Shown piece by piece: positions 1 through 16,942 of a stretch of DNA of 64,000 nucleotides (position 1 is its first letter; every line of letters starts with the position of its first letter). The notes below the pieces were generated by a model. That model was given only the letters and a program-made list of their open reading frames with translations. It was not told the origin of the DNA and did not search any database. The translations under genes and the position numbers were made by a program. This stretch comes from an uncultured Acidobacteriota bacterium (GTDB lineage Bacteria > Acidobacteriota > Thermoanaerobaculia > Multivoradales > SZUA-115): the NCBI GenBank assembly GCA_963805975.1, contig CAWDVR010000001.1:1120001-1184000 (forward strand), read 5' to 3'.

Positions 1-1205
1 ATCGAACAGCGCCCGGTCGTAGATCCACAGGCCGCGCAGCCCGTCGCCCTCCGGCCAGACGTGGAGCTCGAGGTCGAACCGCGTCCAGCGCACCTCAGGG
101 ACCACCCGCGAGATCGCCACCTCCGCCGCCGGCAGCGTCGGGCTGGGCGGCATCTGGTACGCGAACACCACCTGGAAGAACGGGTTGCGGGAGAGGCTGC
201 GAGCCGGGGCCAGCTCCTCGACCAGCTTGTCGAAGCCGAGATCCTGGTGGGCGTAGGCGCCGAGGGCGGCGGACTTCACCCGCTCGATGAGTCGGCTGAA
301 CGTGGGCTCACCGGTGAGATCGCCCACCATCACCAGGCTGTTGACGAAGAGACCGATCAGGTCCTCGATCTCGAGCCGGTCGCGCCCCGCGACCGGCGAA
401 CCGACCGCCACTCGCTCCTGCCCGCCGGCCCGCGCCAGCCAGGCGAGGAAGGCCGCGAGGAGGGTCATCGCCGGCGTCGCGCCGGCGCGCCGCCCGAGGG
501 CGCGGAGGGGGCCGAAGAGGTCCGGCGGCAGATCGGCGTCACAGCTCGCGCCCTGGTACGCGGGATGCGTCGGCCGCGCCCGGTCGGTCGCGAGACCGAG
601 CGGCGGCAGCTCGCCGAGCGCCTGGCGCCAGAACTCGAGGTGGGGAGCGATCGCCTCCCCGTGCTGCCATTGCCGCTGCCAGACCGCGTAGTCGGCATAG
701 CGGGCCGGCAGCTCGGCGAGACGCGGCGGACGGCCTTCGCAGCCCGCGGCGTAGAGCTCCGCGATCTCGCGGTGCAGGATGGCGAGAGAGGTGCCGTCCG
801 AGACGATGTGGTGGTGGGTGAGGAGGAGATGATGCTCGCTCGCCCCGAGGCGGAGCAGCCACGGCCGGAAGAGGGGGCCTCGCACAAGGTCGAAAGACCG
901 CTCCGCCTCCTGACGGGCGAGCTGGCGCGCCGCTGCCAGGCGCTTGCCCCCAGCGAGCCCGGCGAGATCGACGACCGGCAGGTCCAGGTGGCCGGGCGAC
1001 TGCACCACTTGGGCGGGCCGGCCGCCGGGGGCCGGGAAGACCGTGCGCAGGACATCGTGGCGGCGGACGATCTCCCGCAGAGCCAGGCCGAGCCCCCGCG
1101 GATCCAGCTCGCCCTGCAGCTCGAGGGCGAACGGGGTGTTGTAGAACGGGTTGTCCGGCACCAGCTGCTGCAGGAACCACAGGCGCTGCTGGGCGAACGA
1201 AAGGG
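1..1205 (-). other. NRPS module 4 condensation domain (LCL-type), continues out of window
   Basis: PLSFAQQRLWFLQQLVPDNPFYN..RHDVLRT..THHHIVSDGTS..IGLFVNSLVM..NPFFQV. Confidence 0.85.
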
Positions 1206-4200
1206 GGGCCGCGGCACCATGGCTCGCCGGACCGGCGAGGCCAGCCACCAGCGGTGGCGGCGGTGATCCATGATCGCGGGCGAGGGCCGCCTGGAGGCAG
1301 CGGGCGACCCCGGCGACCGTCGGCGCCGCGAACACGTCGGCGAGCGGCAGCTCGACCTGGAAGACGTCGCGCAAGCGGGCGAGGGCGCGGGCGAAGAGCA
1401 GCGAATGGGCCCCGAGGTCGAAGAAGTCGTCGGCGACGCCGAGCCGGGAGACGCCGAGGGTCTCGCTCCAGATCTCGACCAGGATCTCCTCGAGGCCGCT
1501 CCTGGGAGCGAGGAGGCCGGCCGCCGGCCGCTCAGCGGCGTCTTGCCGCGCGGAGCTGCCGGCGCGGAACACCTCTGCGGTCCGCAGCGCCAGGGCGGTG
1601 CGGTCCACCTTGCCGTGGCGGGTGAGCGGCAGAGCGTCGAGGAAGACGAAGAACGAAGGCACCAGGTGGGCGGGCAGCAGGCGTCCGAGGCGCCGGCGGA
1701 GGAGGGCGGCGTCGAGCTCGTCCTCCGAGCCCGGCGCGCGCACCACATAGGCCACGAGATGGCGGTCCTCGTCCGCCATCTCGTGCACCACCACTGCCGC
1801 TTGCGCGACACCCGGCTGGGCCGCCAGGGTCACCTCGACCTCGCCCGGCTCGACGCGGAAGCCGCGGACCTTCACCTGCTGGTCGAGCCGGCCGAGGAAC
1901 TCCAAGGTGCCGTCGGCGCGGAAGCGGGCGCGGTCGCCGCTGCGATAGAGCCGGCCGGGACCCAGAGGGTCGGGCACGAAACGCTCCGCCGTCCAGCCGG
2001 GCCGGGCGAAGTAGCCGCGGGCGAGGCCGCTTCCGCCGATGCACAGCTCGCCGGGAACGCCGATCGGCACCGGGCGGCCACGGCGGTCGAGCAGCACGAC
2101 GCGGGTATCGCCGATCGGCCGGCCGATCGGGATGGGCTGGTCGGGGTCGCCCCCGCCCGGTCCCGTCATCGCGTGACAGGCGGCGAAGGTGGTGCTCTCG
2201 GTCGGGCCGTAGCCGTTGACCAGCCGGGTGCCCGGCAGAGCCGCGAGGGCGGCTCGCACGTGCGCGGGCGAAAGCACGTCGCCGCCCGCCAGAAGCTCCT
2301 CGACGCCCGCCAGGGCCGGCAGCTCCGAGTCGACCATCTGGTGAAAGAGCCCCGCGGTCAGCCACAGGCGGTTGACCCGGTGCCGCACGATCGCCGCCCC
2401 GATCTCGGCGAGGGACAGCCGGCCGGCCGGCGGCAGCACCAGCCGGCCGCCTTGCAGCAAGGTACCCCAGATCTCCAGGGTGGCGGCGTCGAAGGCGGTC
2501 GGCGCGAGCTGCAGGAAGACGGCCCGGGAGGAGAGCGTCATGAACCCGCCGTGCCGCACCAGCCGCACCACGCCGCGATGGGGCACGGCGACCCCCTTGG
2601 GCTCGCCGGTCGAGCCGGATGTGAACATCACGTAGGCGAGGTGATCCTCCGTCGTCGCCGTGACCGGCGGCGTGCCGGGCTGCCTGGCGAGGAGCGGATC
2701 GTCGAGGTCGACGTGCGGGCCGTGATCCGCGATGGCCAGGTCCGCGCCGGCAGTCAGACGCGCGGACCTCTCGCCGAGCACGAGCCCGCCCGGCGGTACG
2801 ACGAGGCGGAGCATGCGAGCGAGGCGCTCCGGCGGGGAGGCGGGATCGAGGGGCACGTAGGCGCCACCCGCCGCGACGACGCCGAGGAAAGCGGTGATCG
2901 CGGCGGGCGATCGCTCGCGGCAGACCGCGACCGGCGTGTCCGGGCCGACGCCGAGCTGCCGCAGGCGGTGGGCGAGCCGGTGGGCGCGTAGCGCGAGGCC
3001 CTGGTAGCTCAGCAGCTCGCCTTCGCCGTCCACGGCGATGGCTTCCGGCCGTGCCGCCGCCTGCTCGGCAAACAGCTCGTGGAGGGTGCCCGCGACGGGC
3101 TGGGAGGGGGCCTTGTCGCTCCACTCGAGGGTCAGCTGCTGGCGCTCGGCGGCCGACAAGGGCAGGAGACGATCGGGCTCGGCGAGCGGCCGGGACACCA
3201 TCTCGGCCAGGGCCGCGACGTGGTAGCCCAGCCAGCGGGCGATCGCCGTCGCCTCGAACCGGCCGGCGTCGTAGCGCAGGTCGAGGACGATCTCGCCGCT
3301 CGTCGGGTCGAGGTGGACGTTGACGATCAGCGGCAGGTCGGTCGCTTCGTGGAACACCCCGCCGCGGATCCCGATGCCGCTGCCGGCAAGCTCCCGGTAG
3401 ACGTGGAAGTGGACGAAGTTGAACGCCACGCCGAACAGCGGGCGGCCACGGAGGCGGCGCAGTTCGGCGAGCGGGAAGCGGCGATGCGGGTGCTGCTCGC
3501 GCTCGGCTGCGGCGCAGCGCCGGACGAGGTCCAGCCAGGTGTCTCGCCCGGCCTCGAGGTGGAGCGAGGTCTCGACCTGGAACGGCAGGGTGTTGAGGAA
3601 GAGGCCGAGGACGCGGTCGCCGTCCGTGGTCTCCTGCCGGCCGTTCCACACCAGACCGGTGGTCGGACGGGAGGTGCCGCAGAGGGTGGCGAGGGCCTGC
3701 AGGTGGGCTGCCAGGAGGACGCTCTTGACCGGCGCTCCGGCCCGGGCGGCGACTGCCGGCACACCTGCCGCGACCGTCGCGGGGAGCGACCGGCGCAGCT
3801 GGCGCACGGCGGGTGGCCGCGACCGCTCCCGCGCGGCGAGCCCCCACGCGGTGAGACTGGGCAGCTCGGCCGGCTCGTCGGCGGTCGCGGCCAGCCAGAA
3901 GCGCCGGCTCGCGGTGGCGGCGAGGCTGCGGCCCTCGAGAGCGACGTAATCGCGGAAAGTGGCTCGCGGCGGTGCCGGCGCCAGCGAGCTCGCCCCGGTC
4001 GCCAGGGCCGACCAGGTGGCGAGCAGCTCGGTGAGCAGCGAGGCGACGCTCCAGCCGTCGAGGATCACGTGATGGAAGCTCAAGGCGAGCTGGAGGCAGG
4101 TAGCGCTGCGCAAGTGGACGTGGCAGCGCAGGAGCGGCGGCCGGCCGAGATCGAAGGGGCGCGCCTTCTCTCGCTCCACCCAGGCCAGGACGGCGGCCGT

Positions 4201-7200
4201 CTGGTCCGCAGGAGCGAGCCGCCGGAGGTCGGTCACCGCGAACGGCATGCGCGCCCGGCTGTGCACCCGTTGCAGCGGCTCGGCGAAGCGCGCGAGGTCG
4301 AACGAGCTGCGCAGCACCGCGTGGCGCTCGACGATCCGCTCCCAGGCCAGCACCAGCGCCGCGAGGGAGAGGCCTTCGACCGCGATCTCGTAGCTGAAGA
4401 CGTCGTGGTAGAGGCCGAGCCCGGGCGCGTCACCCGCCTTCGCCACCATTCCCCACTGCAAGCGAGTCAGGGGATAGGCGTCCTCGACGTCGCCTGGCAG
4501 GACGCGGCGCTCGGCGGCGCTCAGCAGAGCGAAGGGCAGACTGGGCTCCTCCTCGTGGGTGCCCCCGCCGGCCAGGCGCGCCAGCTCGCGCACGACGGGA
4601 TGCCGGAAGAGGTCTGCGACGGTGAAGGAGAGGCCGCGAGCCGCGGCGCGGGAACGTACCTGCAGGCTGTGGATCGAGTCCCCACCGAGGTCGAAGAAGC
4701 TGTCGCCAGCGCTCACCCGAGCCCGGCCCAGCACTTCGCCGAAGATCGCCGCGAGAGTTTCCTCGGCCTCGTTCGCGGCCGGCACGAAGGGCCGCTCGGC
4801 GGGCAGCTCTGATATGAGGGCGGGAGCCTGGCGGACGAGCGCTGCGCGATCGACCTTGCCGTGCAGGGTGAGGGGCAGGGCTGCGACCGCCAGGTAGGCG
4901 GCCGGCAGCATGGCCTCCGGCAGCAGGCGGCGCAGCGCCGCCCGCAGCTCGCTGGCCGGCGCTGCCGGGCCCGGCGCCTGGGGCACCACGAAGGCGATGA
5001 GCTGACTGCCGCTCTCCGCATGCGGGAGAGCGATCACCACCGCCTCGCCCACTCCCGGCTGCCGGCGCAGGGCGGCTTCGATCTCGCCGAGCTCGATGCG
5101 GTGGCCTCGAACCTTGACCTGGTTGTCACGCCGGCCGAGGTAGAGGAGGCTGCCGTCCGGGCGGTGGCGGGCGAGGTCGCCGCTGCGGTAGAGCCGCTCT
5201 CCGGGCAGGCCGGCGTGGCCATGGGGACGGAAGCGTGCGGCCGTCTCGGCGGGCCGGCCCCAATAACCGCGGGCGAGCCCGGCGCCACCGACCCAGATCT
5301 CCCCCGGTGTCCCGATCGGCACCGGCTCGCCCCGGCCGTCGAGGAGGTGGACCTCGAGGTCGGCGAGCGGGCGGCCGATCGGGCTGCCGCCGCCCGCGTG
5401 GAGCGGCTCGAGGGTCACGTGGACGGTGGTCTCGGTGATCCCATAGAGATTGAGCAGCCGGGGACGGGCGGTGCCGAAGCGGTCGAACCAGCTCGCCAGC
5501 GATCCGGCATCGAGCGCCTCGCCGCCGAAGATCACCCGCCGCAGCCGCCCGCTGCCCGCCGCCGCCGCGACGGCTACCTCCTGCAGGCCGCGGAAGGCGG
5601 AGGGCGTCTGGTTGAGCACCGTCACGCCCTCGCGCAGCAGCAAGCCGTGCAGCTCGTCCGGCACCCGGCCGACCGCCGGGGGCACCAAGACCAGCCGCCC
5701 GCCGTGGGCGAGCGGCCCCCAGATCTCCCACACCGAGAAGTCGAAAGTGTGGGCGTGGAACAGGCACCAGACGTCGTCCGGCCCGAACCCCACACCGTCG
5801 CGGGTGACGGCGAAGAGGCGCAGCAGATTGTGGTGGGAGACCGCCACCGCCTTCGGCCGGCCGGTCGAGCCCGAGGTGAAGATCACGTAGGCGATCTGCT
5901 CGCCGAGGATCGGCGGCGCCGCGAGCGCCTCCCCTGTCGTGCCCGCTGGGTCGTAGCCGTCGAGATCGATCGGCTCGACTCCCGGCGGTGGCTCGAGCGG
6001 CGAGGAGCCGTGGACGAGGAGGAGCGTGGCGCCCACCTCGCGCAGCATGCGGTGGGAGCGCTCCGGCGGGTGGGCCGGGTCGAGGGGAAGGTAGAAGCCG
6101 CCAGCCTCGAGGACGGCGAGGATCGCGACGATCAGAGCGGGCGAGCGCTCGAGCCCGAGGCCGACGGGCGTCTCCGTGGTCACCCCCAGCGCGCGGAGCC
6201 GGCGGGCGAGGTGGCTCGCCCGGCGTCGCAGCTCGCCGTAGGAGATCTGCTCGGCCCCGCCACCCAGCGCGCCGCCGACCAGGGCTACGGCATCCGGCTG
6301 CCGCTCCGCCACCCGGGCGAAGAGCTGGTGGATCGCCGTCACCGAGTCCGCGTCCCGAGCGCGCACCGCCGGGTTCCACTCGTGGAGGACCTGCTGCCGT
6401 TCGGCCGCGCTCCAGGGTAGGAAGCGCTCGTGCCTGGCCGCCGGGTCCGCCGCCATCGCCGCCAGGGTCCGCCGGTAGCACGCCGACCAGCGCTCGATCT
6501 CCGTGTCGTCGAACCGGCGGCGATCGTGAGCGAGGAAGAGCCCCGCCTGCCGGCCGTCGGGCTCGAGATGGAAGTTGAGCAGCAGGGGTAGATCAGTCGC
6601 CTCGACGAAACGACTGTCCAGGATCGCCAGCTCGCCCTCGTGCCGCGCGAGGTCGCGGTAGACGTAGTAGTGGAAGAAGTTGAACGCAGTGTCGAAGAGC
6701 GGCTGGCCGTCCCGCAGGCGGCGTATCTCGGCCATCGGATAGCGGCGGTGGGGCAGCACCTCGCGCTCGTGCGCGAGGGTTCGCCGGACGAGGTCCACCC
6801 AGCTGCCGGCCGAGAGGGACAACCGGAAAGGGACCGTGTTGAGGAAGAGGCCGAGAATGCGGTCGCCGTCCTCCTCCTCCGGACGGCCGTGAAGCACCAA
6901 CCCGGTGGTCACCCGCCCAGCGCCGCAGAGCCGGCCGAGGACCGCGAGGTGGGCGGCGAGGAGGACACTCTTGAGAGGCGCCTCCGCCTGGGCGGCGAGG
7001 CGGCGCAGGCCGGCGGTGATCTCCGGCGAGAAGGCGAGCGAACGCTGCTCGACCTCGCGTGGAGCGGCCGCTACCGGCGCAGTCCCGCCGGCCAGCCAGG
7101 GCGGAGCCTCGTCGGTCTCTCCCTGCCAGAAGACGCGGTGCTCCCCGGCGGCCAGAACCGCCTGCTCGAGGGCGACGAAATCCCGAAAGTGACCCTGCGG

Positions 7201-10200
7201 CGCGGCCGGCAGGGCTGCTAGCTCGTCCTGCCGGGCAAGATAGGTGGCGAGAAGCTCGGTGACCAGGGACGCCAGGCTCCAGCCGTCGAGGATGGCGTGA
7301 TGGAAGCTCAGAGTGAGCTGGAAACGGCCGTCTCCCCGCGGGTGCGCCTGGCAGCGCAGGAGGGGCGGCCGCGCGAGGTCGAACGGCCGTCGTTTCTCGC
7401 TCGCGATGGCAGCCGCGATCGCACTTTCCTGGGCGATGGCCGGCAGGCCACGCAGGTCGGTCACCGCCAGGGGCACCACGGCACGCCAGTGCACCCGTTG
7501 CAGCGGCTCGCCGAAGCTCCCGAGGTCGAAGGAGGTCCGCAGGGTCGGATGCCGGCGGACGACGACTTCGAGGCTCCGTCGCAGCCGCCGGGCATCGAAG
7601 TCGCCGCGCAGATGGTAGGTGAAGACGTCGTGGTAGAGGCCGGCCTCGCCCTCCGCCTCGCCGTGAAAGAGCATGCCGGCCTGGAGCCGGGTCAGGGGAT
7701 AGGCGTCCTCGACATCGGCCGGAAGTCGTTGCCGGACCTCGGCCGGGACGAGCGCGAAGGGCCTCGGGCGAGGGACGGTACCGCCAGGAACCGCCTCGCC
7801 CGCCAGCTGGGCGAGATCCGCGATCACCGGATGGCGGAAGATCTGCTCCAGGGTGAGCGCGAGCCCGACCGCCGCGGCGCGCGCGCGGATCTGCAGGCCG
7901 CGGATCGAGTCCCCACCGAGATCGAAGAAGCTGTCGAGGACGCCCACCTCCCGGTGCCCCAGGACCGCCGCGAAGATCTCCGCCAGCCGCTTCTCGGCCG
8001 GCGTTTCCGGCGCCTGGTACGGCCGGCCCCGGCGGGCTGCCGCATGAGCCTCGCCGCCACGGAGCGCATGGTGGGCGAGGGCGGCACGGTCGAGCTTGCC
8101 ATTCACCGTCAGCGGCATGGCGGCCAGCACCACGAAGCTCGCCGGGATCATCGACGGCGGCAGGATCGCGGCGAGGTGGCGGCGCAGGGCCGGAGCGCTG
8201 AGGGCCGGATTCAAGATGCCGGAGGACGCTCCGGACGCCGGGTCCGCCGGTGTCACGACCGCGACGAGCCGGGCCGGCTCGTCGCGGTCCCGGTGGACCA
8301 GGACGGCGGCTTCCCCGACCGCCGGGCAGCGGGCGAGGGCGGCCTCGACCTCGCCGGTCTCGATGCGGAAGCCGCGGATCTTCACCTGCTGGTCGGTGCG
8401 GCCGAGGTACTCCAGACGGCCATCCGCCCGGCGGCGGGCGAGGTCGCCGCTGCGGTAGAGCCGGGCGCCGGCGTCCCGACTCCAGGGATGGGGCAGGAAG
8501 CGGCTGGCGGACTCGGCGGGCCGCTGCCAATAGCCACGGGCGAGCCCGGCGCCCCCGACGTGGATCTCCCCGGTGACCCCCAACCCTACCGGCTCGCCGC
8601 GGCGATCGAGGAGGTAGGTCTCCCAGGCCGGCAGGGGCCGGCCGATCGGACTCGCCGGGGAGCAGCTCTCTATCTCCGGGCGGCCGATCCGCTGGCAGGT
8701 CACGTGGACCGTGGTCTCGGTGATGCCGTAGAGATTGAAGAGCCGCGGCTCACGATCGCCGAAGCGCTCGATCCATGGCCGCAGGCTTTCTGGCGTCAGG
8801 GCCTCGCCGCCGAAGACGATCTGCCGGAGCGGCGGCTGGGCCGGAGCCGTGAGGGCCACGTCTTGGTAGCTGCGAAACGCCGACGGGGTCTGGCTGAGCA
8901 CCGTCACTCTTTCGCGCGTGAGCAGCCCGTGGAGCTCCTCCGGCTCGCGGCTCACCCAATAGGGGACCACGACGAGCCGGCCCCCCTGCGCGAGCGCTCC
9001 CCAGAGCTCCCACACCGAGAAGTCGAAGCTCATCGCATGGAAGAAGCTCCAGACGTCGTCGCGACCGAAGCCCACGTGGGCCTGGGACTCCGCCAAGAGG
9101 CGGACGACGCTCGCGTGGGTGACCGCGACGCCCTTGGGCCAGCCCGTCGAGCCCGAGGTGTAGAGCAGGTAGGCGAGTCGCTGCGGCAGCTCCGGCGTCA
9201 GGTCCCAGGGCTGGGCCGCGGTGGCGATCACCGGTTCGCGGCCCAGCTCCGGCGCCAGGTCCATGGGGAAGGAGCCGTCCGTCACCAGCGCGACCGGCGC
9301 GGCGTCGGCGAGCACCCACGCCAGGCGCTCGCGGGGCAGCTCGGGGTCGAGAGGCACGTAGAAACCGCCAGCGGCGAGGATGCCGAGGATCCCCGCCACC
9401 ATCTCTTCGCCGCGGCCAGCGCAGAGGGCAACCGCTTTCTCCTCCGCCACGCCTGCAGCGCGGAGCCGGCCGGCGAGGTTCCAGGCCTGCCGTGCGAGCT
9501 CGCCGTAGCTCAGCTGGCGGCCGTCGCAGACGACGGCCACGGCATCCGGTCGCTCGCTCACCCGGGCCGCGAAAAGCGCATCGAGAGTCCCTCCCGCGGT
9601 GGAGCTGCCCGGCTCGTGCTCCTCGTGGATGAGCTGGTGCCGCTCGGCGCGCGCCATGAGCGGCAGGCTCCCCACGGCCTGGCTCGGGTCCGCCACCACG
9701 CCCGCGAGGAGCCTCTCGAGCTGTCGCGCCCAGCGCTCGATCGTGGTGTGGTCGAAGAGGTCGCTGCGATACTCGAAGACCAAGCGGAGACCGTCCCCGA
9801 TCCGCGCCGTCTGCACGACGAGATCGAAGGGGCTGTGGTCGCGCGGCAGGATGTCCCCCTCCATGCGCACCTCGCCGTCCGCACCAGGACGCAGGAGGCG
9901 ATGCTGCACCATCACCACAGAGTAGAGGTTGGCGAGGGCCGAGATCCCTGGGCGGGCAATCAGCCCGCCGACCAGCTCGTTGGGAAAGTCCTGATGCCGG
10001 GCGAGGGCCGCGACGGCCGTGCTCAGTCGCCCGAGACTGTCCAGGAAGGGCTGGCCGGCGGACCAGTGAGTCGGCAGAGGCAGCGTGTTGGCGAAGTAGC
10101 CCAAGACGCGCTCGTGGAGCCCCTCGGGATGGGAGCGGCCGTGGAAAGGCACTCCGAGAATTACTTCGCGCTCGCCTGAAACACGGTGGAGAAACGCCGC

Positions 10201-11025
10201 GAAAGAGGCCAGCAGGACCCGAAAGAGACTCGTCTCGCTCTGCCGCTTCAGCTCTTCGAGGCCAGCCACCAGCGTCGGTCGCAGCTGCCACTCGACATCT
10301 GCCGCCGCACCGACCGGGGTTGCCGGGCGAGCTCGGTCCGTCGGCAGCGCGAGCTGCGTGGGCGATGAGCCCAGGGTCTCGCGGAAGAACCGGGCATGGG
10401 CCTCATAGGTGTCGCTGCCGATCGCGAGCCGCTCCCGTTGCCAGGCGGTGAAGCTCGGGTAGGGGAGCCCAGGCTCGAGCTCACCGCCGTGATAAATCGC
10501 CGACAGATCCTCCACGAAGATCTGGGCCGCCGTGGCATCCATGACGAGATGGTGGGCGAGCAGCAGCAGGCGGTGCTCCAGTGCGGAGAGCCGGAGCAGG
10601 AGGAAGCGGTAAAGCGGCCCGGCTTCGAGGTCGAACGGCTGGCGCAAGGGAGCCAAGAGGCAGGCGGAGATGGCCCGAGAGCCTGGCGACCGAGGAAGGC
10701 AGGAGAAGTCGACACAGGGGCAGCGAAGCGGGGGCGTGGCTTCGACCCGCTGGACCGGATCGCCCGCGATCGGCTCGAAAACGAGGCGGAGGGCCTCGTG
10801 GTGCTGGACGAGCCGGCGAAGCGCCTGGATCAACCGGCCCGGAGCGAGCGGACCGCTCAGCCGGATGCTGTAGCCGAGGTTGTAGAGGGACGTCCCCGGC
10901 GCGAGCTGCTCCATGGCCCAGAGAGCTGTCTGGCCATAGGAGAGAGAGACGGCCTCACGCCTGGACGACGTCCCCATCGTTCCATTCCGTGCACCGCGAG
11001 CCCCAGGCTTCCCGCGCGCTCCCAT
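1..11025 (-). CDS. Multimodular non-ribosomal peptide synthetase, 3'-partial (>3,675 aa): C-A-T-C-A-T-C-A-T-C...
   Basis: ATG at 11025 (alternative 10977). Absent from the ORF track, consistent with no in-frame stop before base 1; the long + strand shadow ORFs all sit in one antisense frame. Manual translation gives C motifs HHLVMDA (~10545), HHAILDG (~7295), HHVILDG (~4065), HHIVSDG (~805); A3 motifs YLLYTSGSTGWPKG, YVIFTSGSTGRPKA, YVMFTSGSTGEPKG; PCP motifs FFDLGGDSI (~7915, ~4685) and FFDLGAHSL (~1410). Confidence 0.95.
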   Translation of the reverse strand, partial: MGARGKPGARGARNGTMGTSSRREAVSLSYGQTALWAMEQLAPGTSLYNLGYSIRLSGPLAPGRLIQALRRLVQHHEALRLVFEPIAGDPVQRVEATPPLRCPCVDFSCLPRSPGSRAISACLLAPLRQPFDLEAGPLYRFLLLRLSALEHRLLLLAHHLVMDATAAQIFVEDLSAIYHGGELEPGLPYPSFTAWQRERLAIGSDTYEAHARFFRETLGSSPTQLALPTDRARPATPVGAAADVEWQLRPTLVAGLEELKRQSETSLFRVLLASFAAFLHRVSGEREVILGVPFHGRSHPEGLHERVLGYFANTLPLPTHWSAGQPFLDSLGRLSTAVAALARHQDFPNELVGGLIARPGISALANLYSVVMVQHRLLRPGADGEVRMEGDILPRDHSPFDLVVQTARIGDGLRLVFEYRSDLFDHTTIERWARQLERLLAGVVADPSQAVGSLPLMARAERHQLIHEEHEPGSSTAGGTLDALFAARVSERPDAVAVVCDGRQLSYGELARQAWNLAGRLRAAGVAEEKAVALCAGRGEEMVAGILGILAAGGFYVPLDPELPRERLAWVLADAAPVALVTDGSFPMDLAPELGREPVIATAAQPWDLTPELPQRLAYLLYTSGSTGWPKGVAVTHASVVRLLAESQAHVGFGRDDVWSFFHAMSFDFSVWELWGALAQGGRLVVVPYWVSREPEELHGLLTRERVTVLSQTPSAFRSYQDVALTAPAQPPLRQIVFGGEALTPESLRPWIERFGDREPRLFNLYGITETTVHVTCQRIGRPEIESCSPASPIGRPLPAWETYLLDRRGEPVGLGVTGEIHVGGAGLARGYWQRPAESASRFLPHPWSRDAGARLYRSGDLARRRADGRLEYLGRTDQQVKIRGFRIETGEVEAALARCPAVGEAAVLVHRDRDEPARLVAVVTPADPASGASSGILNPALSAPALRRHLAAILPPSMIPASFVVLAAMPLTVNGKLDRAALAHHALRGGEAHAAARRGRPYQAPETPAEKRLAEIFAAVLGHREVGVLDSFFDLGGDSIRGLQIRARAAAVGLALTLEQIFRHPVIADLAQLAGEAVPGGTVPRPRPFALVPAEVRQRLPADVEDAYPLTRLQAGMLFHGEAEGEAGLYHDVFTYHLRGDFDARRLRRSLEVVVRRHPTLRTSFDLGSFGEPLQRVHWRAVVPLAVTDLRGLPAIAQESAIAAAIASEKRRPFDLARPPLLRCQAHPRGDGRFQLTLSFHHAILDGWSLASLVTELLATYLARQDELAALPAAPQGHFRDFVALEQAVLAAGEHRVFWQGETDEAPPWLAGGTAPVAAAPREVEQRSLAFSPEITAGLRRLAAQAEAPLKSVLLAAHLAVLGRLCGAGRVTTGLVLHGRPEEEDGDRILGLFLNTVPFRLSLSAGSWVDLVRRTLAHEREVLPHRRYPMAEIRRLRDGQPLFDTAFNFFHYYVYRDLARHEGELAILDSRFVEATDLPLLLNFHLEPDGRQAGLFLAHDRRRFDDTEIERWSACYRRTLAAMAADPAARHERFLPWSAAERQQVLHEWNPAVRARDADSVTAIHQLFARVAERQPDAVALVGGALGGGAEQISYGELRRRASHLARRLRALGVTTETPVGLGLERSPALIVAILAVLEAGGFYLPLDPAHPPERSHRMLREVGATLLLVHGSSPLEPPPGVEPIDLDGYDPAGTTGEALAAPPILGEQIAYVIFTSGSTGRPKAVAVSHHNLLRLFAVTRDGVGFGPDDVWCLFHAHTFDFSVWEIWGPLAHGGRLVLVPPAVGRVPDELHGLLLREGVTVLNQTPSAFRGLQEVAVAAAAGSGRLRRVIFGGEALDAGSLASWFDRFGTARPRLLNLYGITETTVHVTLEPLHAGGGSPIGRPLADLEVHLLDGRGEPVPIGTPGEIWVGGAGLARGYWGRPAETAARFRPHGHAGLPGERLYRSGDLARHRPDGSLLYLGRRDNQVKVRGHRIELGEIEAALRRQPGVGEAVVIALPHAESGSQLIAFVVPQAPGPAAPASELRAALRRLLPEAMLPAAYLAVAALPLTLHGKVDRAALVRQAPALISELPAERPFVPAANEAEETLAAIFGEVLGRARVSAGDSFFDLGGDSIHSLQVRSRAAARGLSFTVADLFRHPVVRELARLAGGGTHEEEPSLPFALLSAAERRVLPGDVEDAYPLTRLQWGMVAKAGDAPGLGLYHDVFSYEIAVEGLSLAALVLAWERIVERHAVLRSSFDLARFAEPLQRVHSRARMPFAVTDLRRLAPADQTAAVLAWVEREKARPFDLGRPPLLRCHVHLRSATCLQLALSFHHVILDGWSVASLLTELLATWSALATGASSLAPAPPRATFRDYVALEGRSLAATASRRFWLAATADEPAELPSLTAWGLAARERSRPPAVRQLRRSLPATVAAGVPAVAARAGAPVKSVLLAAHLQALATLCGTSRPTTGLVWNGRQETTDGDRVLGLFLNTLPFQVETSLHLEAGRDTWLDLVRRCAAAEREQHPHRRFPLAELRRLRGRPLFGVAFNFVHFHVYRELAGSGIGIRGGVFHEATDLPLIVNVHLDPTSGEIVLDLRYDAGRFEATAIARWLGYHVAALAEMVSRPLAEPDRLLPLSAAERQQLTLEWSDKAPSQPVAGTLHELFAEQAAARPEAIAVDGEGELLSYQGLALRAHRLAHRLRQLGVGPDTPVAVCRERSPAAITAFLGVVAAGGAYVPLDPASPPERLARMLRLVVPPGGLVLGERSARLTAGADLAIADHGPHVDLDDPLLARQPGTPPVTATTEDHLAYVMFTSGSTGEPKGVAVPHRGVVRLVRHGGFMTLSSRAVFLQLAPTAFDAATLEIWGTLLQGGRLVLPPAGRLSLAEIGAAIVRHRVNRLWLTAGLFHQMVDSELPALAGVEELLAGGDVLSPAHVRAALAALPGTRLVNGYGPTESTTFAACHAMTGPGGGDPDQPIPIGRPIGDTRVVLLDRRGRPVPIGVPGELCIGGSGLARGYFARPGWTAERFVPDPLGPGRLYRSGDRARFRADGTLEFLGRLDQQVKVRGFRVEPGEVEVTLAAQPGVAQAAVVVHEMADEDRHLVAYVVRAPGSEDELDAALLRRRLGRLLPAHLVPSFFVFLDALPLTRHGKVDRTALALRTAEVFRAGSSARQDAAERPAAGLLAPRSGLEEILVEIWSETLGVSRLGVADDFFDLGAHSLLFARALARLRDVFQVELPLADVFAAPTVAGVARCLQAALARDHGSPPPPLVAGLAGPASHGAAAPLSFAQQRLWFLQQLVPDNPFYNTPFALELQGELDPRGLGLALREIVRRHDVLRTVFPAPGGRPAQVVQSPGHLDLPVVDLAGLAGGKRLAAARQLARQEAERSFDLVRGPLFRPWLLRLGASEHHLLLTHHHIVSDGTSLAILHREIAELYAAGCEGRPPRLAELPARYADYAVWQRQWQHGEAIAPHLEFWRQALGELPPLGLATDRARPTHPAYQGASCDADLPPDLFGPLRALGRRAGATPAMTLLAAFLAWLARAGGQERVAVGSPVAGRDRLEIEDLIGLFVNSLVMVGDLTGEPTFSRLIERVKSAALGAYAHQDLGFDKLVEELAPARSLSRNPFFQVVFAYQMPPSPTLPAAEVAISRVVPEVRWTRFDLELHVWPEGDGLRGLWIYDRALFD
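1290..4490 (-). other. NRPS module 3: modAA-like C, Val-type A domain, PCP (GAHSL)
   Basis: DAYPLTRLQWGMV..YHDVF..EPLQRVH..SFHHVILDGWS..FNFVHFHVY. A core FDAATLE/LWLTAG/LLAGGD/NGYGPTESTTFA gives code DALWLGGTFK (Val/aliphatic). Confidence 0.8.
4580..7710 (-). other. NRPS module 2: modAA-like (dehydrating) C, Thr-type A domain, PCP (GGDSI)
   Basis: DAYPLTRLQAGMLFH..YHDVF..EPLQRVH..SFHHAILDGWS..FNFFHYYVY; A code DFWNIGLVHK. Boundaries approximate. Confidence 0.8.
7800..10950 (-). other. NRPS module 1: N-terminal (starter-position) C, Thr-type A domain, PCP (GGDSI)
   Basis: LSYGQTALW..YNL, HHLVMDA. A-domain core FDFSVWE/LSQTPS/IVFGGE/NLYGITETTVHVT gives specificity code DFWSVGLVHK, close to the Thr code DFWNIGMVHK. 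Boundaries approximate. Confidence 0.8.
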
Positions 11026-11040: not shown

Positions 11041-12105
11041 CTACTTCGAGGCCCTGCGGGCCCGCTTGGGCGGGGCTTTCACTTCGGGCTCGAACCAGCC
11101 CACCGAGTCAAGCCAGGCCAGGGTGCCAGTCAACCAGGGTGGATTACCGGTTCCGCCGCCGGTGGCGATCGTCCGCAGCCGCTCCTTGATCACCTTGCCT
11201 GTGCCTTCCGGCGGCATCGTGCTGTCCTCGAGGTCGAAATCGAGCAACTCGCCGCCAAGCTTCATCGGCGGGTTCAGCCGCATGAAGTTCTCGCCGAGGA
11301 TCGACTTGCATTGGAAGTCGACCGCCATCATTCCGGACTCGAAGAAGGCTTCCACCAGGGCGAACGGCCGGCGCAGATCGAGCAACCACTGTTTCCATCC
11401 CCAGGGTGCGTTCTCCACGTTGAGACCTGAGCCCGTGAGGCCTGTGCCGACGGAGAGCAGCCGGATCTCGGTCGGTCTCATCGGCTCTCCCTTGCCTCCA
11501 AGCGGGGTGCTCAATGCCTGGGCGAGCGCGCACATGCTCGGGTTGTTGGCGTAGAGCCCGCCGTCGACGAAGCCCTGGTAGATCGGGAAGAAAATCGGTC
11601 CGGCGCTCGTCCGCAAGGCGACGTCGAGGGCCGACTGGCCGAGGTCGGGCTCCCCCTTGCCGCCGAAGTTGTTGAACACTTTCGGCTTCCAGGTCGGCAC
11701 GCCACCCTTCGCCTCGCCCATCAGATCGAAGGTCGGGATCACTACGTACTGCCCTTGCGCAGCCAGGCTGCCGAGGGTGTTCGTGCCCAGCAGGGGAGTG
11801 AGGCTGTCCTTCAGGTAAGCATTGCTGCTGATCGAGAACCAGCCGCTGATCGTCGCGAAGAGCGAGCGCAGGGGCCTTCCGGCGCTCGGGCTCTGCGACC
11901 ACAACGAGATCGACTGCTGCAGGCCGGACGCCCGGTCGGCTGCCGTCATCATAAGCAACGCGTTGATCCCGCCGGCGGAGGTGCCGGCAAAGGCGTCCAC
12001 TTGGGCTAGGAACTCGGGCCTCTTGCGCTGGATCTGCTCGATCGCGTAGAGGGAAAAGAGTGAAAGGATTCCTCCGCCGTCCATTGCCAGGATGTTGAAG
12101 GCCAT
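11041..12105 (-). CDS. Patatin-like phospholipase/acyl hydrolase
   Basis: MDGGG glycine block, GTSAG nucleophile elbow, SAGPIFF, VDGGLYANNP catalytic Asp motif. RBS AAAGGGAG. Stop lies about 15 bp before the NRPS ATG. Confidence 0.9.
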   Translation of the reverse strand: MAFNILAMDGGGILSLFSLYAIEQIQRKRPEFLAQVDAFAGTSAGGINALLMMTAADRASGLQQSISLWSQSPSAGRPLRSLFATISGWFSISSNAYLKDSLTPLLGTNTLGSLAAQGQYVVIPTFDLMGEAKGGVPTWKPKVFNNFGGKGEPDLGQSALDVALRTSAGPIFFPIYQGFVDGGLYANNPSMCALAQALSTPLGGKGEPMRPTEIRLLSVGTGLTGSGLNVENAPWGWKQWLLDLRRPFALVEAFFESGMMAVDFQCKSILGENFMRLNPPMKLGGELLDFDLEDSTMPPEGTGKVIKERLRTIATGGGTGNPPWLTGTLAWLDSVGWFEPEVKAPPKRARRASK

Positions 12106-12220
12106 GGTCTGGTTCTCCCTTTCTGCCGGTGAAAAACCTTCGCCGTGAACACAATTTCCCTGACCGAGCCTGCGAAGGGGCTCGTAAGCTCGAGCTCACA
12201 CGGTCCCTTGCACAAGCTTC

Positions 12221-12463
12221 CTACTCGACCTTGACCTTCTTTGAAGCCGGCTGCGGCTTCGCCTCCGCCGCCAGGTTGTCGATCGCGGCCTGGACGACCG
12301 AGGTATAGCCCTGGAGGATCGTGAGCCCCGCCTGCAGATAGGCGGCACGCAAGGTCTTGCTGGCGCTCGTTAAATCCGCGGTCTGCGGGGCGAGCTTGGA
12401 GAGCTCGGCGATCTGCTGCATCACGGTGCCAAGAATGTCGCTCGGACCACCCACCTGGCTCAT
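12221..12463 (-). CDS. 80-aa amphipathic helical protein with C-terminal KKVKVE tail
   Basis: Strong RBS GAGGAGGAG, 12 bp after the arsA-like stop; GC3-biased codons; periodic hydrophobic pattern with no TM segment. Confidence 0.8.
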   Translation of the reverse strand: MSQVGGPSDILGTVMQQIAELSKLAPQTADLTSASKTLRAAYLQAGLTILQGYTSVVQAAIDNLAAEAKPQPASKKVKVE

Positions 12464-12475
12464 GGTGCTCCTCCT

Positions 12476-13651
12476 CTACTTGAAGTCGATGCTCAGCTCG
12501 TTGCCTTCCATCCGGGCCTGCGTCGTCTTGAATTGGGCCAGGGAGCGCGGCAGGGCAACGTGGCGCTTGAAGCTGGAGATACGGACAATCAGCTCGTGCT
12601 CGTTACGCGTTAGGACAATCTCGTCCTTTTCGACGAAAGGCAGGACCATTTTCAGCCGGTAGATGCCATCCGCCTTTTCGAAACTGAACGGCGGAGCGTC
12701 GACCTGCCGTGCCGCCGGATCCTGGTCGCCGAACAGGACTCGTCCGACCTCGGCCAAGCGATCGATGCCCACCACCTCGTCGCCGAACAGAGGCACCCTG
12801 GAGACCGGGATCGGGTCGAAGTACTTCTCGATCTGAGCGGCGTAGTTCGCGTGGGTGCCCACCCAGCCCGCGAGGTATCCCTCGGCCGAGCTGATCAAGC
12901 GATTGATGATCACGCCGTCCGTATTCATACCGTACATGCAGAAGTACGTGTAGGCTCTCTGTGTCTCACGGACAACCATCTTCTCGGCGTTGGTCACCAG
13001 GCGCACCGAGGTGACCTCCGGGTCCTTCAGCAGCTCGTCGATCCCTTCGAGCCGCCCGAAGGCGTTCTTCAGCGAGTCGAAGTAGCTGTCCTGTGGCAAG
13101 GGATAGTCGATGAGCTTGCTGGCGATCGGACGCGCCACCTTCAGAATCGCGCGATCCGTCTTGAATCGCTTGCGAACATACCAGTCAATCGATGTCATCA
13201 GATTGACGAAGCGCAACGATTCGCTAGTCGGTGGACAATCGACGACGATCAAGTCGTAAGTATCTTCGCGGTAATGCTGATTGATCGCCATCAACGCGAT
13301 CAGATCCTCCATACCGGGCATGATGGCCACTTCCTCGGCTACGATGCCACTCATCCCCATGGAGGAGAAAAAAGCCCCGATGTAGTGATAGAGGTCTCCC
13401 CATTGCCGCTCGATCTGCTCTTGAACGTCGACCTCCTGAAGGTCGAGGTTTTCCGCCATGCGCAACGGAAGGCCCCCATGCTGATCGAACAGGCTGCAAT
13501 CGAGGTTGAAGGAATCCGAGAGACTGTGAGCGAGATCGAAAGAAAGGACGAGGGTTCGATGGCCCCTTCGGGCCGCAGCAACGGCTGTCGCCGCAGCGAT
13601 CGTGGTCTTGCCGACACCCCCCTTGCCGGAGACGAGGATCACGCGCTTCAC
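12476..13651 (-). CDS. ArsA/TRC40/Get3-family ATPase with C-terminal HSP20-like (alpha-crystallin) domain, Get3d-like
   Basis: Deviant Walker A GKGGVGKTT, DLAHSLSDS, PGMED, DCPPT (DTAPT equivalent), EKMVVRET. Single ATPase domain plus beta-rich tail YRLKMVLPFVEKDEIVLTRNEHELIVRISSFKRHVALP..ARMEGNELSIDF. Confidence 0.9.
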   Translation of the reverse strand: MKRVILVSGKGGVGKTTIAAATAVAAARRGHRTLVLSFDLAHSLSDSFNLDCSLFDQHGGLPLRMAENLDLQEVDVQEQIERQWGDLYHYIGAFFSSMGMSGIVAEEVAIMPGMEDLIALMAINQHYREDTYDLIVVDCPPTSESLRFVNLMTSIDWYVRKRFKTDRAILKVARPIASKLIDYPLPQDSYFDSLKNAFGRLEGIDELLKDPEVTSVRLVTNAEKMVVRETQRAYTYFCMYGMNTDGVIINRLISSAEGYLAGWVGTHANYAAQIEKYFDPIPVSRVPLFGDEVVGIDRLAEVGRVLFGDQDPAARQVDAPPFSFEKADGIYRLKMVLPFVEKDEIVLTRNEHELIVRISSFKRHVALPRSLAQFKTTQARMEGNELSIDFK

Positions 13652-14047
13652 GACAACTCGCTCTGCATAGCTTTACCTCGTGCGCAAAGATCTCTAGAGG
13701 GCCAGCAAGATACGCCTCAGCCGAAGCTTCCACGGATTGCAACTTGCTCGACTGCGAGTATAGAGGGATGTCGTCAGCGTGCGCAAGAGTAAATCTACCT
13801 CTCAAGCCTTGTGCAGACACTGCTTACGACTTCTGGACATCGCTCTCGGAGACGTGTACAATTCTTGCCTGCGTATTTCGGCAAGACGTAGTAATGCACA
13901 GAGGCGTCGATGCCATACAACCGTCGGCCCTGACGGCGCTACTCTACGCCGCTCGCATAGCCTTCTCGCGGCATCGCCAAGTGCGCAGGGATGCATAAGA
14001 GGTGGGATCGATCCAATCTGTGCCAAATTAGCAACGGAGGCGAGGCC
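13652..14047. promoter_or_regulatory. Divergent promoter region of the island with a palindromic candidate operator
   Basis: About 400 bp, lower GC, between divergent genes. TCTTGCC-N10-GGCAAGA at 13863-13886; GTGCGCA recurs at ~13680, ~13779, ~13981. Confidence 0.4.
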
Positions 14048-14455
14048 ATGTCGCTGGAAGACCAACTCAAGGCGAAAGAAGAGGAATACTGGAAGTTGTG
14101 GGCGGATCTCGATCAGGCAGCGTTTCTCGACCTCTTCAGTGATCGCGTCCTCGCCTGGCCCAGCGGGTTGCCTTATCCGATGGGTAAAGATTGGTTCAAG
14201 CTTTGGACCAAGACGACCTTCGAGAACATCGAGCCCGGCACATTCAACTTCAAGCTCGGGCAGATGTACGTGCAGATGATCGATGACACGAGCGGGATCA
14301 TTTACTACGCATGGTCCTATGATGCCACCCTCAAAATGCCACCTGGCCCTCGTCATGCTTCCGGAACGCTCTCTCACACCTGGGTTCTGGAAGAAGACTG
14401 GGCGATCATTGGCGGGACCAGTCAGGCCAATCCGACTGTAACGAGCGCCCTGTGA
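14048..14455 (+). CDS. NTF2/SnoaL-like (DUF4440-type) small protein
   Basis: ATG 14048 after GGAGGCGAGG; alpha+beta pattern ending in HTWVLEEDWAIIGG, typical of NTF2-fold proteins. Confidence 0.7.
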   Translation: MSLEDQLKAKEEEYWKLWADLDQAAFLDLFSDRVLAWPSGLPYPMGKDWFKLWTKTTFENIEPGTFNFKLGQMYVQMIDDTSGIIYYAWSYDATLKMPPGPRHASGTLSHTWVLEEDWAIIGGTSQANPTVTSAL

Positions 14456-14523: not shown

Positions 14524-16440
14524 ATGTACAGGATCACTCTGATCAACATGCCCTTCTCGAACCTGAGTCTGCCGAGCCTGGCTCTGACTCAGCTCAAGGC
14601 GGTCTTAGAGCGCGATCTCGATGACCAAATACGGGTGCGTATTCTTTATCTGAATCACGATTTCTCGCACTATCTCGGGCTCGATCTCTATTTCCGTATC
14701 ACGCATGCCGTCGAGTCGAACAACTCCGGGCTCGGTGACTGGTTGTTTCGTCAGGTCGCCTTTCCTCTCGCGAGCGACAACATCCAGCAATACTTCCAGC
14801 GTTACTATCCCCAGCAAGAAGGTGGTCTCGACGTTCTCAAGGGAAAGATCCTAGCCAAGCGGGTGCGTCTCGGACAGTTTCTCGATCGGCTGATCGGCAA
14901 CTATCAGCTGGATCAGGAGGATCTAGTCGGTTTTACTTCAATGTTCGCCCAGAACGTCGCAAGCTTGGCTATGGCGCGGAAGATCAAGGACCGGAATCCA
15001 CGATGCGTCACCGTTATGGGTGGCGCCAATTGCGAAGCACCGATGGGAGCCGAGCTCGCGGCTCACGTCGAAGCGATGGACTTCATCTTCTCCGGACCCG
15101 CGCTGGTGAGTTTTCCGCAATTCGTCCGTTATCAGATCCGTGGCGAAGTCGAGGCTTGTCGAACTCTGCAGGGTGTTTTTTGTGGCGCGAACCTCGGCTC
15201 CAAACACCTCGAGGGATCTGGGGCTATCGGGGCCGAGCTGCCGATGAACATCCCGGTGCCGCTCGACTATGACGAGTTTCTGGCGCTGTTTGAGAAGAAC
15301 TTTCCTGGTGGCGACCTTCGACCCTGTCTCACCTTCGAGACCTCGCGAGGTTGCTGGTGGGGAGAGCGTTCGCATTGTACGTTCTGTGGTCTCAACGGTG
15401 GCACGATGGCTTTCCGCCGGATGCCCGCCGACGACGCAGTGGAGCTGCTGAATGGGCTCTTCTTACGTTACGGAGATCGCTGTCCTCGCTACGAAGCAGT
15501 GGACAACATCATGCCGATCGATTACATCAAGGACGTTTTTCCTCGCCTGAAGCCACCCCCGGAAGCCACGATCTTTTACGAGATCAAAGCCAACATGAAA
15601 GAGGAAGAGCTGGAGATCCTGAAGCGGGGTGGAGTCAACGAGGTCCAGCCCGGCATCGAGTCTCTTTCGACTTCCACCTTGAAGCTTATGCGGAAGGGCA
15701 CCACGAGCTTCCAGAACATTCGTTTCCTGAAAGGTTGCCTATCCGCCAACGTACGGCCGATCTGGAATCTTTTGATCGGTTTTCCCGGGGAGGAAGCTGG
15801 TGTATACGAGAAGTATCTAGCGGACCTTCCGCTACTCTTTCATCTGATGCCGCCGACCGGTGCCTTTCCCGTTCGTTTCGATCGCTATAGCCCATACTTC
15901 ACCCACTCGGATAGCTTCCGGCTAAAGCTCTCACCCTATGATTTCTACGAGATGGTTTACCCCTTCGGAACCGACTCGCTCTACAACCTTGCCTATTACT
16001 TCGAAGACCGGAACTACAACGCGAGATATATTGATAACCTGATCCTGTGGAAAGAGAAGCTCAACACGGTTGTCGATCAATGGCGTGCGCTGTGGAAGTC
16101 CGACAGCGTGCTTCCGAAGCCCGAGCTGTATCTCAAGCTGGCCGCTGACTCGTGCCCTGCCGTGGTCTTCGATTCACGAAACGGCCAGAGTGGAACGGAG
16201 CACGAGATCAGCGATCTAGGCCTCCGAGTCCTCGATCTGCTTCACGTCCGAGGGATGAGGCTGACGGATCTCGAGAGGTCCGTCGATGCGACTCCGGATG
16301 ACCTTGCGGGGGAGATCGACGGACTGCGTCGATCGGGGATCCTTTTCGAGGAGGATGGTCGCTGGATGAGCCTGGTTATCGACCGTGCGTCGCAGCTCGG
16401 ACGGATGGAGAGCTATCAGTCGCTGCCGACTCTGGTTTGA
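14524..16440 (+). CDS. B12-dependent radical SAM C-methyltransferase, RiPP-maturation (PoyB/PoyC-like) type
   Basis: LINMPF..PSLAL start, B12-binding GFTSMFAQ..MGGANC, Cx7Cx2C motif ETSRGCWWGERSHCTFCGLNG, QPGIES, WNLLIGFPGE, RFDRYSPY. RBS GGAGGAG before ATG 14524. Confidence 0.9.
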   Translation: MYRITLINMPFSNLSLPSLALTQLKAVLERDLDDQIRVRILYLNHDFSHYLGLDLYFRITHAVESNNSGLGDWLFRQVAFPLASDNIQQYFQRYYPQQEGGLDVLKGKILAKRVRLGQFLDRLIGNYQLDQEDLVGFTSMFAQNVASLAMARKIKDRNPRCVTVMGGANCEAPMGAELAAHVEAMDFIFSGPALVSFPQFVRYQIRGEVEACRTLQGVFCGANLGSKHLEGSGAIGAELPMNIPVPLDYDEFLALFEKNFPGGDLRPCLTFETSRGCWWGERSHCTFCGLNGGTMAFRRMPADDAVELLNGLFLRYGDRCPRYEAVDNIMPIDYIKDVFPRLKPPPEATIFYEIKANMKEEELEILKRGGVNEVQPGIESLSTSTLKLMRKGTTSFQNIRFLKGCLSANVRPIWNLLIGFPGEEAGVYEKYLADLPLLFHLMPPTGAFPVRFDRYSPYFTHSDSFRLKLSPYDFYEMVYPFGTDSLYNLAYYFEDRNYNARYIDNLILWKEKLNTVVDQWRALWKSDSVLPKPELYLKLAADSCPAVVFDSRNGQSGTEHEISDLGLRVLDLLHVRGMRLTDLERSVDATPDDLAGEIDGLRRSGILFEEDGRWMSLVIDRASQLGRMESYQSLPTLV

Positions 16441-16907
16441 GGCTCCGTTCGTCATCGCCGTGCTGCGCTCGGTTCCCCAGGCCCTCGAACCGCTTCACGG
16501 CCCAACTCGCAGCACTCGAGCGAAGCAAAGAGCGCTTGATCGAGGTGTACGTCTTCCAGCAGGTCATCGACGAAGGGACCTTCCGCTCCCACCTCGTAAG
16601 CTGAATGAGGACATAGCTTTAGCCAAGGCTCATGCTGCAGAGATCGAGACCGAGCCGACTGATCTCGAATCGCTCTGGGAGTTTGGTGAGCATGTAGCGA
16701 CTCACGCCGGCAGCCTCTGGCAGGAGGCTCCGCTCGAACAGAAAACTGAGCCTCCAAAGGTTGATTTCCTGACAGGACATTACGTACGGCACGGAGGGAT
16801 TTCAAACAGCGCCAACCAGCCTAATTTTCAACGACTTACGTGGGCCGAAGGACGTAAAAACGGCGATGGTATCCCCAACGGGATTCGAACCCGTGTTATC
16901 GCCTTGA
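16441..16907 (+). pseudogene. C-terminal remnant of a large serine recombinase/integrase overlapping the tRNA 3' half
   Basis: Joined frames read RFTAQLAALERSKERLIEVYVFQQVIDEGTFRSHL/KLNEDIALAK..DLESLWEFGEHVATHAGSLWQEAPLEQK/LSLQRLIS*QDITYGTEGFQTAPTSLIFNDL..MVSPTGFEPVLSP*. Frameshifts at ~16596 and ~16745, TGA at 16770. Family assigned from recalled similarity. Confidence 0.7.
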
Positions 16908-16942
16908 AAGGGCGGTGTCCTAGGCCTCTAGACGATGGGGAC
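16867..16942 (-). tRNA. tRNA-Glu (anticodon TTC)
   Basis: GTCCCCATCGTCTAGAGGCCTAGGACACCGCCCTTTCAAGGCGATAACACGGGTTCGAATCCCGTTGGGGATACCA: 76 nt, cloverleaf, GTTCGAATC T-loop, encoded CCA. Confidence 0.97.

Follow-up and report, generated by a model that had tools for sequence, protein, structure and literature searches.

PoyB and PoyC of polytheonamide biosynthesis and BotRMT1-3 of bottromycin biosynthesis are class B radical SAM methyltransferases that C-methylate valine and other unactivated carbons, and the available text of PMC11285071 describes them as acting on ribosomal precursors. The same source assigns a Cx7Cx2C motif to PoyC, credits it also with polytheonamide’s tert-butyl group at the N terminus, and treats the class B steps as established, namely SAM cleavage, hydrogen abstraction, methyl transfer from methylcobalamin and recharging of the cobalamin by a second SAM. 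In 2025, a cobalamin-dependent radical SAM enzyme linked to an NRPS was published: DscE, from the discodermin cluster of the sponge symbiont ‘Ca. Entotheonella monilis’, which, according to the available parts of that report (PMC12858407), methylates V5 in vitro and acts on discodermin D, a finished peptide. CysS of the cystobactamid pathway is a B12 radical SAM methylase that makes tert-butyl groups for an NRPS product; it acts on the methoxy group of a pantetheine-linked aryl block and may use a carrier-bound intermediate (PMC8950095, available text).

We analysed a 64,000-nucleotide stretch (the window) of the genome of an uncultured Acidobacteriota bacterium, in which a putative enzyme of class B layout, belonging to family TIGR03975, is encoded at 14524-16440 (+), 3.5 kb from a giant NRPS-PKS gene. 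PoyB/PoyC and BotRMT1-3 share this layout but act on ribosomal precursors, whereas none was found at the present locus; the enzyme also lies on a branch separate from the sampled non-NRPS members of its family, in a tree built without PoyB/PoyC. With DscE it has the NRPS cluster setting in common. The closest database homologue of DscE is a ‘RiPP maturation radical SAM C-methyltransferase’, which is the TIGR03975 name, and discodermin modules A4 and A5 carry the code DAFWLGGTFK, identical to that of modules 6 and 9 here (PMC12858407, available text). DscE (693 aa, against 638 aa here) is likened by description, homologue name and module codes, not by sequence. The two systems differ in that discodermin is made by four NRPS genes, whereas here a single NRPS-PKS with dehydrating-type C domains is found, and in that the activity of DscE has been demonstrated, whereas the present enzyme is known from its sequence and predicted fold. 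With CysS the fold is shared to a TM of ~0.45 (PDB 9N1B), at ~13% identity over the structural alignment. An NRPS with Val-type modules is encoded beside the enzyme, as would be expected for tailoring of the DscE kind. Since that principle was shown in 2025 for DscE, the enzyme would add another case and is not a first.

The gene forms one uninterrupted frame of 638 aa, preceded by a GGAG ribosome-binding site. The original prediction read its product as a RiPP-type B12 radical SAM methyltransferase from a Cx7Cx2C motif and a B12-binding domain, and suggested a match to rSAM_ocin_1 as a check. The motif is indeed present: C277, C285 and C288 (15352-15387, +) are kept in 119/119 aligned homologues and lie inside the radical SAM domain (PF04055, over cut-off, residues 272-424), the arrangement of class B radical SAM methyltransferases; no CxxxCxxC motif occurs in the sequence. 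The rSAM_ocin_1 profile, TIGR03975, agrees as well, matching at 516.5 bits against a cut-off of 281.85 and over model positions 1-606, its full length. As for the B12-binding domain, the Pfam model PF02310 gave no match in a profile search, so the cobalamin domain is assigned from the predicted fold, which does resemble cobalamin enzymes. An AlphaFold model computed from a 119-row alignment (pLDDT 91.9, pTM 0.90; single-sequence folding reached a pLDDT of 33 and was discarded) has as its top PDB structural matches OxsB, TokK, TsrM, MgmA and CysS, all of which we take, from record titles or established knowledge, to be cobalamin-dependent. A profile search picks up OxsB and TokK, and phmmer against PDB sequences returned no match. 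From the model, the enzyme is predicted to be a cobalamin-dependent radical SAM protein. Cobalamin use is plausible in this host, because six other B12-binding matches over cut-off are found elsewhere in its genome. The predicted domains are an N-terminal Rossmann-like domain, a radical SAM core and a C-terminal domain at residues ~535-616, in which, by predicted secondary structure, three strands, three helices and a hairpin follow one another in what appears to be an RRE-like order. The frame is intact and all invariant residues are present.

The setting of the family was surveyed in 108 enzyme sequences, drawn from the 80 top-ranking loci among 139 confirmed in GTDB and from 24 regions that take in each of the 27 family matches over cut-off in 60 relatives; the closest homologue is ~60% identical to the enzyme. 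A C or KS domain occurs in the flank (~10 kb) of 60/71 relatives at ≥41% identity (58/69 after removing the duplicates L119 = L003 and L114 = L028; 51/55 of those with ≥8 kb of flank) and in 0/37 under 41% (0/31 with ≥8 kb of flank), although the threshold was chosen after the gap was seen in the data and the kin are not independent, six being near-copies from Nonomuraea. Any assembly-line domain is found for 63 of the 69; no such domain shows up in L014, L025, L041, L117 and L123, and L010 is limited to a C fragment where its contig ends. In many loci (L001, L005, L024, L053, L057, L060, L120) the enzyme gene sits between or directly after NRPS genes. The relatives at ≥41% form one branch with the query nested inside (SH 100 in a FastTree tree of 102 rows, from which six short or duplicate rows and L027 were left out), and the same branch is recovered at 100/100 in a midpoint-rooted IQ-TREE tree of 50 chosen rows. 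It spans five phyla (Acidobacteriota, Actinomycetota, Pseudomonadota, Myxococcota and Planctomycetota) and includes the named isolates Nonomuraea, Streptomyces canus, Catenulispora and Polyangium. One distant family member has a clear NHLP beside it, and among the 30 listed of 57 plasmid records all are ≤38% identical to the enzyme.

We therefore regard the enzyme as well supported as NRPS-linked, the close homologues being linked as the original prediction needed them to be. Its idea that a RiPP-type methyltransferase had been recruited to a non-ribosomal peptide is supported in substance, but not as a one-off at this locus: the branch is old and widespread across five phyla, with DscE as a precedent. 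We found no description of the whole NRPS/PKS-linked branch in the literature searched, which held few subscription papers. We are less sure of the target residue than of the non-ribosomal link, since Val/Ile-type A domains make up 14/109 of those near branch members (14/49 loci, 10-kb views); for the same reason valine is not the universal target of the branch. No enrichment of A-less modules near branch members is apparent, and no locus combining a similar synthetase with this enzyme was found among the relatives. The branch enzyme also recurs in two conserved actinomycete cluster families, one in Nonomuraea/Acrocarpospora (L034, L037, L039, L042, L044, L047, L049) and one in Streptomyces canus/Embleya (L052, L054, L055), the latter with the Val-like code DTLFIGGVFK.

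The synthetase is encoded by one gene of 14,220 aa (C1:1088363-1131025), the 5′ quarter of which occupies 1..11025 (−) of the window. Its modules run C-A-T ×3, C-T without an A domain (module 4), C-A-T-E, C-A-T ×7 and KS-AT-T-TE. The A-domain codes were taken from the alignment and called against Supplementary Table 7 of PMC12858407: DFWSVGLVHK and DFWNIGLVHK for modules 1 and 2 (Thr-like), DALWLGGTFK for modules 3 and 11 (Val), DAWFLGHVVK for modules 5 and 7 (Leu; module 5 is the C-A-T-E), DAFWLGGTFK for modules 6 and 9 (Val), DFWNIGMVHK for module 8 (Thr), and DVYVITQVVK and DVFSCGLTYK for modules 10 and 12, which agree at 6/10 with Pro and Ala codes, respectively. The codes of modules 1, 2, 10 and 12 were not found in the literature searched, with its few subscription papers. 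Within the window, modules 1 and 2 are Thr-type and module 3 is Val-type; the latter call had been made correctly beforehand, except that the full synthetase holds four Val-type modules, not one. At least four other NRPS or NRPS-PKS clusters lie elsewhere (C1:1018000-1064000, C2:205000-242000, C2:955000-970000 and C5:183000-285000), and one of them ends 25 kb from the island described below.

It had also been proposed that Leu in place of Met at code position 7 of both Thr-type A domains in the window could reflect a modified Thr. The Leu7 variant is real, Met being present in 5/5 other Thr-type domains seen (positions are presumed to follow the GrsA numbering), and it does not require methylation as its explanation. 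For the C domains that follow modules 1 and 2, the best structural-database matches, by a wide margin, are those of McyA and AmbE (371/241 and 316/208 bits, with the next structures at ≤145 and 124), which we take to be dehydrating (PDB 8JBR, 7R9X). The C domain that follows module 8, the third of Thr type, shares 50–54% identity with these two and 28–36% with the rest. Because each of the three Thr modules, even the one with the Met code, is followed by a dehydrating-type C domain, dehydrobutyrine (Dhb) is favoured over methylated Thr and would be the simplest outcome for all three residues, leaving the modified-Thr reading weak. The present protein differs from McyA/AmbE in combining three dehydrating-type C domains, two of them in tandem at its start. 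The product would approximate to Dhb-Dhb-Val-X-D-Leu-Val-Leu-Dhb-Val-(Pro-like)-Val-(Ala-like), extended by a single unreduced ketide unit. The synthetase has some oddities (window about 9646-10953 (−) and 1-1270 (−)): its first C domain resembles the elongation (LCL) type, with no upstream donor found in the island, and its fourth module is A-less. The KS-AT-T-TE end has no ketoreductase and shows atypical AT motifs (GYSLG, LAAH).

Around the enzyme, the genes fall into two divergent groups. On the plus strand two genes are paired, with that of the enzyme second; the first encodes a 135-aa DUF4440/SnoaL-like protein (14048..14455, +; profile below cut-off, E 4e-4) that ends 68 bp upstream and for which 80 related loci contain no homologue. 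On the minus strand the synthetase comes fourth in a run, after the genes for a Get3/ArsA-family ATPase with an HSP20-like tail (12476..13651, −), an 80-aa helical protein (12221..12463, −) and, directly ahead of the synthetase, a patatin-like protein (11041..12105, −). The suggestion of a promoter region shared with the NRPS operon is matched by the divergent layout only: the intergenic region (13652..14047) holds one sigma70-like site (13834-13862, +) against 1.6 expected, no better than chance.

The right end of this neighbourhood is a tRNA-Glu(TTC) gene (16867..16942, −) that serves as an integration site. About 45 bp separate the enzyme’s stop codon from what is left of a broken serine recombinase gene, a 3′ remnant (16485..16860, +) that is 74% identical in DNA to the end of a resolvase/recombinase gene located at the same tRNA in G001, a genome of the same genus; there, that gene and other cargo occupy the tRNA with no TIGR03975 match. 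A 14-bp repeat over the tRNA 3′ end (16862..16875, +) has its only other genome copy at C1:1086284, 2 kb past the synthetase end, and the two copies, which are likely the island ends, enclose enzyme and synthetase in 50.6 kb. Of 20,000 random 14-mers of the same GC, 50 landed within the 59-kb stretch. The left flank gene lies 1.3–12 kb from a tRNA-Glu match in four of the five family relatives searched (G002, G003, G004, G006), versus 59 kb here; in G001 they fall on separate contigs. Given the repeat pair and these short distances in relatives, a single 50.6-kb island at tRNA-Glu likely carried both enzyme and synthetase. Just inside the left end, a gene for an Nbr1-type Ig-domain protein with a cysteine-rich C-terminus (L081:12476-14320 (+), C1:1086476-1088320) converges on the synthetase. 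The composition of the island is uneven, with GC3 at 0.90 in the synthetase, 0.86 in patatin, 0.79 in arsA, 0.70 in the SnoaL-like gene and 0.68 in the enzyme; the median gap is 0.00 in 42 related loci, only L026 having one as large. Since the GC3 of the enzyme and of the SnoaL-like gene is far under that of the synthetase, this pair may have arrived late.

The original prediction saw no convincing precursor nearby and allowed that one elsewhere in the island would count against it. Neither the genome (5.36 Mb, 6 contigs, 96.35% complete) nor the island yielded one. No match to TIGR03793 (NHLP), PF07862 (Nif11), PF03412 (C39) or PF02624 (YcaO) was found genome-wide; the last three models matched in control genomes, while TIGR03793 matched in 0/14 controls and had its positive control in the relative G032, beside a distant family member. 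Outside the synthetase, an RBS-based list of the island’s short ORFs showed no leader/core-like peptide. For the modelled families, a precursor with RiPP processing genes nearby is thus not found at the enzyme locus, although a precursor-looking ORF in L108 that matches no model illustrates that profile searches miss many precursors. The 80-aa ORF, the one genuine small gene there, was considered as a precursor and is unlikely to be one, because its positional homologues (20–29% identity) follow ArsA in 3/3 close ArsA loci from 300 genomes of the order, and the fetched regions of these three loci contain no TIGR03975 enzyme. An atlas search with it gave low-scoring unnamed clusters only. Elsewhere in this genome there is a second, distant TIGR03975-like radical SAM gene (L084:10251-12227 (−), C2; 195 bits, under cut-off), whose product has a cysteine run resembling Cx2Cx2C; neither an NRPS nor a precursor was seen in its vicinity. 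In two genomes, highly repetitive ‘EV.PE’ proteins beside distant TIGR03975 genes (L101:7235-7882, L116:4949-5266) are possible repeat-type RiPP precursors.

By analogy with DscE, we propose that the enzyme C-methylates the peptide of the adjacent NRPS-PKS, most likely converting one or more of the four predicted valines to tert-leucine, a reading to which we would give about an even chance. The [4Fe-4S] cluster would cleave SAM, the resulting 5′-deoxyadenosyl radical would take a hydrogen from the side-chain carbon, and methylcobalamin would donate the methyl group before being recharged by a second SAM. Methylation would come late, on the assembled or released peptide, as with DscE on discodermin D. 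Valine is favoured as the target because Val/Ile-type A domains account for 4/11 in this synthetase versus 1/45 elsewhere in the genome (Fisher p 0.004, post hoc), and because the DAFWLGGTFK code is common to modules 6 and 9 and discodermin. The enzyme might instead serve the same cluster at another residue or stage, such as the Thr/Dhb units of modules 1-2, the residues of modules 10 and 12 with their odd codes, or, in the manner of CysS, a block bound to a carrier during assembly. The non-standard Leu7 codes, the 6/10 matches of modules 10 and 12, the predominance of other A domains near branch members, the tert-butyl group that PoyC builds at the N terminus (PMC11285071, available text) and the possible carrier-bound substrate of CysS (PMC8950095, available text) all point this way. 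However, dehydrating-type C domains after every Thr module, the standard-code one included, and the action on Val in a finished peptide of DscE, the sole characterised NRPS-linked ‘RiPP maturation’ methyltransferase in the available text, make us consider this unlikely.

What counts against any coupling is that the enzyme is divergent from the synthetase and 3.5 kb away, not embedded in it, with a GC3 of 0.68 versus 0.90. That gap, the truncated recombinase ~45 bp from its stop codon and the different cargo at the same site in G001 would also fit a SnoaL-like/enzyme pair that came late to an integration hotspot, parted from its original cluster, and is now either idle or serving another NRPS product, for which the 45 scored A domains of the genome’s other clusters leave room. 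Against this stand the intact frame with its invariant residues, the position inside the repeat-bounded island, the improbability of a chance landing by the genome’s only Val-rich synthetase, and a GC3 that declines gradually from the synthetase through patatin and arsA; we hold the idea possible, if somewhat unlikely. A full-length TIGR03975 match, the retained RRE-like C-terminal domain, the distant C2 family member, a genome that is 96% complete and profiles that miss many precursors, as with the precursor-looking L108 ORF, would suit an ordinary RiPP maturase whose precursor, the 80-aa ORF or one elsewhere in the genome, went unrecognised. Such an enzyme seems very improbable here, given the branch-wide NRPS/PKS linkage, the 80-aa homologues after ArsA in three loci without the enzyme, an island survey with no leader/core-like peptide, and a genome with no C39 or YcaO match.

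Valine methylation of the adjacent peptide remains our preferred reading, and it has a bolder extension. The 1.5-MDa NRPS-PKS and a RiPP-derived radical methylase might together rebuild polytheonamide-type chemistry without the ribosome, the tandem N-terminal Thr units being dehydrated and iteratively C-methylated to a bulky cap, several valines becoming tert-leucine, and the RRE-like domain being re-purposed to grip the assembly line. We consider this a long shot.

The genes ahead of the synthetase deserve separate mention. A Get3/ArsA ATPase and a partner of ~80 aa whose sequence ends in K-[VI]-x-[VL]-x immediately precede a PKS or NRPS gene in 3/3 close relatives among 300 genomes (L133:10320-16975, L135:2982-10558, L136:4063-6201; window 11041-13651 (−)), with patatin also in two; in nine metagenomic ArsA loci that are more distant (≤50% identity), no patatin or NRPS/PKS match was obtained. 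Patatin alone follows an NRPS thioesterase in L131 and L132, and the first C domain of the synthetase (window about 9646-10953 (−)) has a 39% homologue after the ArsA cassette in L136. No account joining patatin, ArsA and an NRPS biosynthetic gene cluster was found in the literature searched, again one with few subscription papers, and the ArsA/80-aa/patatin cassette is possibly more novel than the enzyme finding.

For the family, the ‘RiPP maturation’ database label misleads genome mining when applied to the NRPS/PKS-linked branch. What the locus adds to the single DscE example is the breadth of that branch and a further test case: here the whole synthetase is encoded in one gene and its product, rich in Val and Dhb, is predictable, so that the site choice and timing of radical methylation could be tested on it. 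The Nonomuraea/Acrocarpospora and Streptomyces canus/Embleya clusters are the more tractable test cases. Were the polytheonamide-like extension true, the five-phylum branch would be a mining handle for hypermethylated non-ribosomal peptides.
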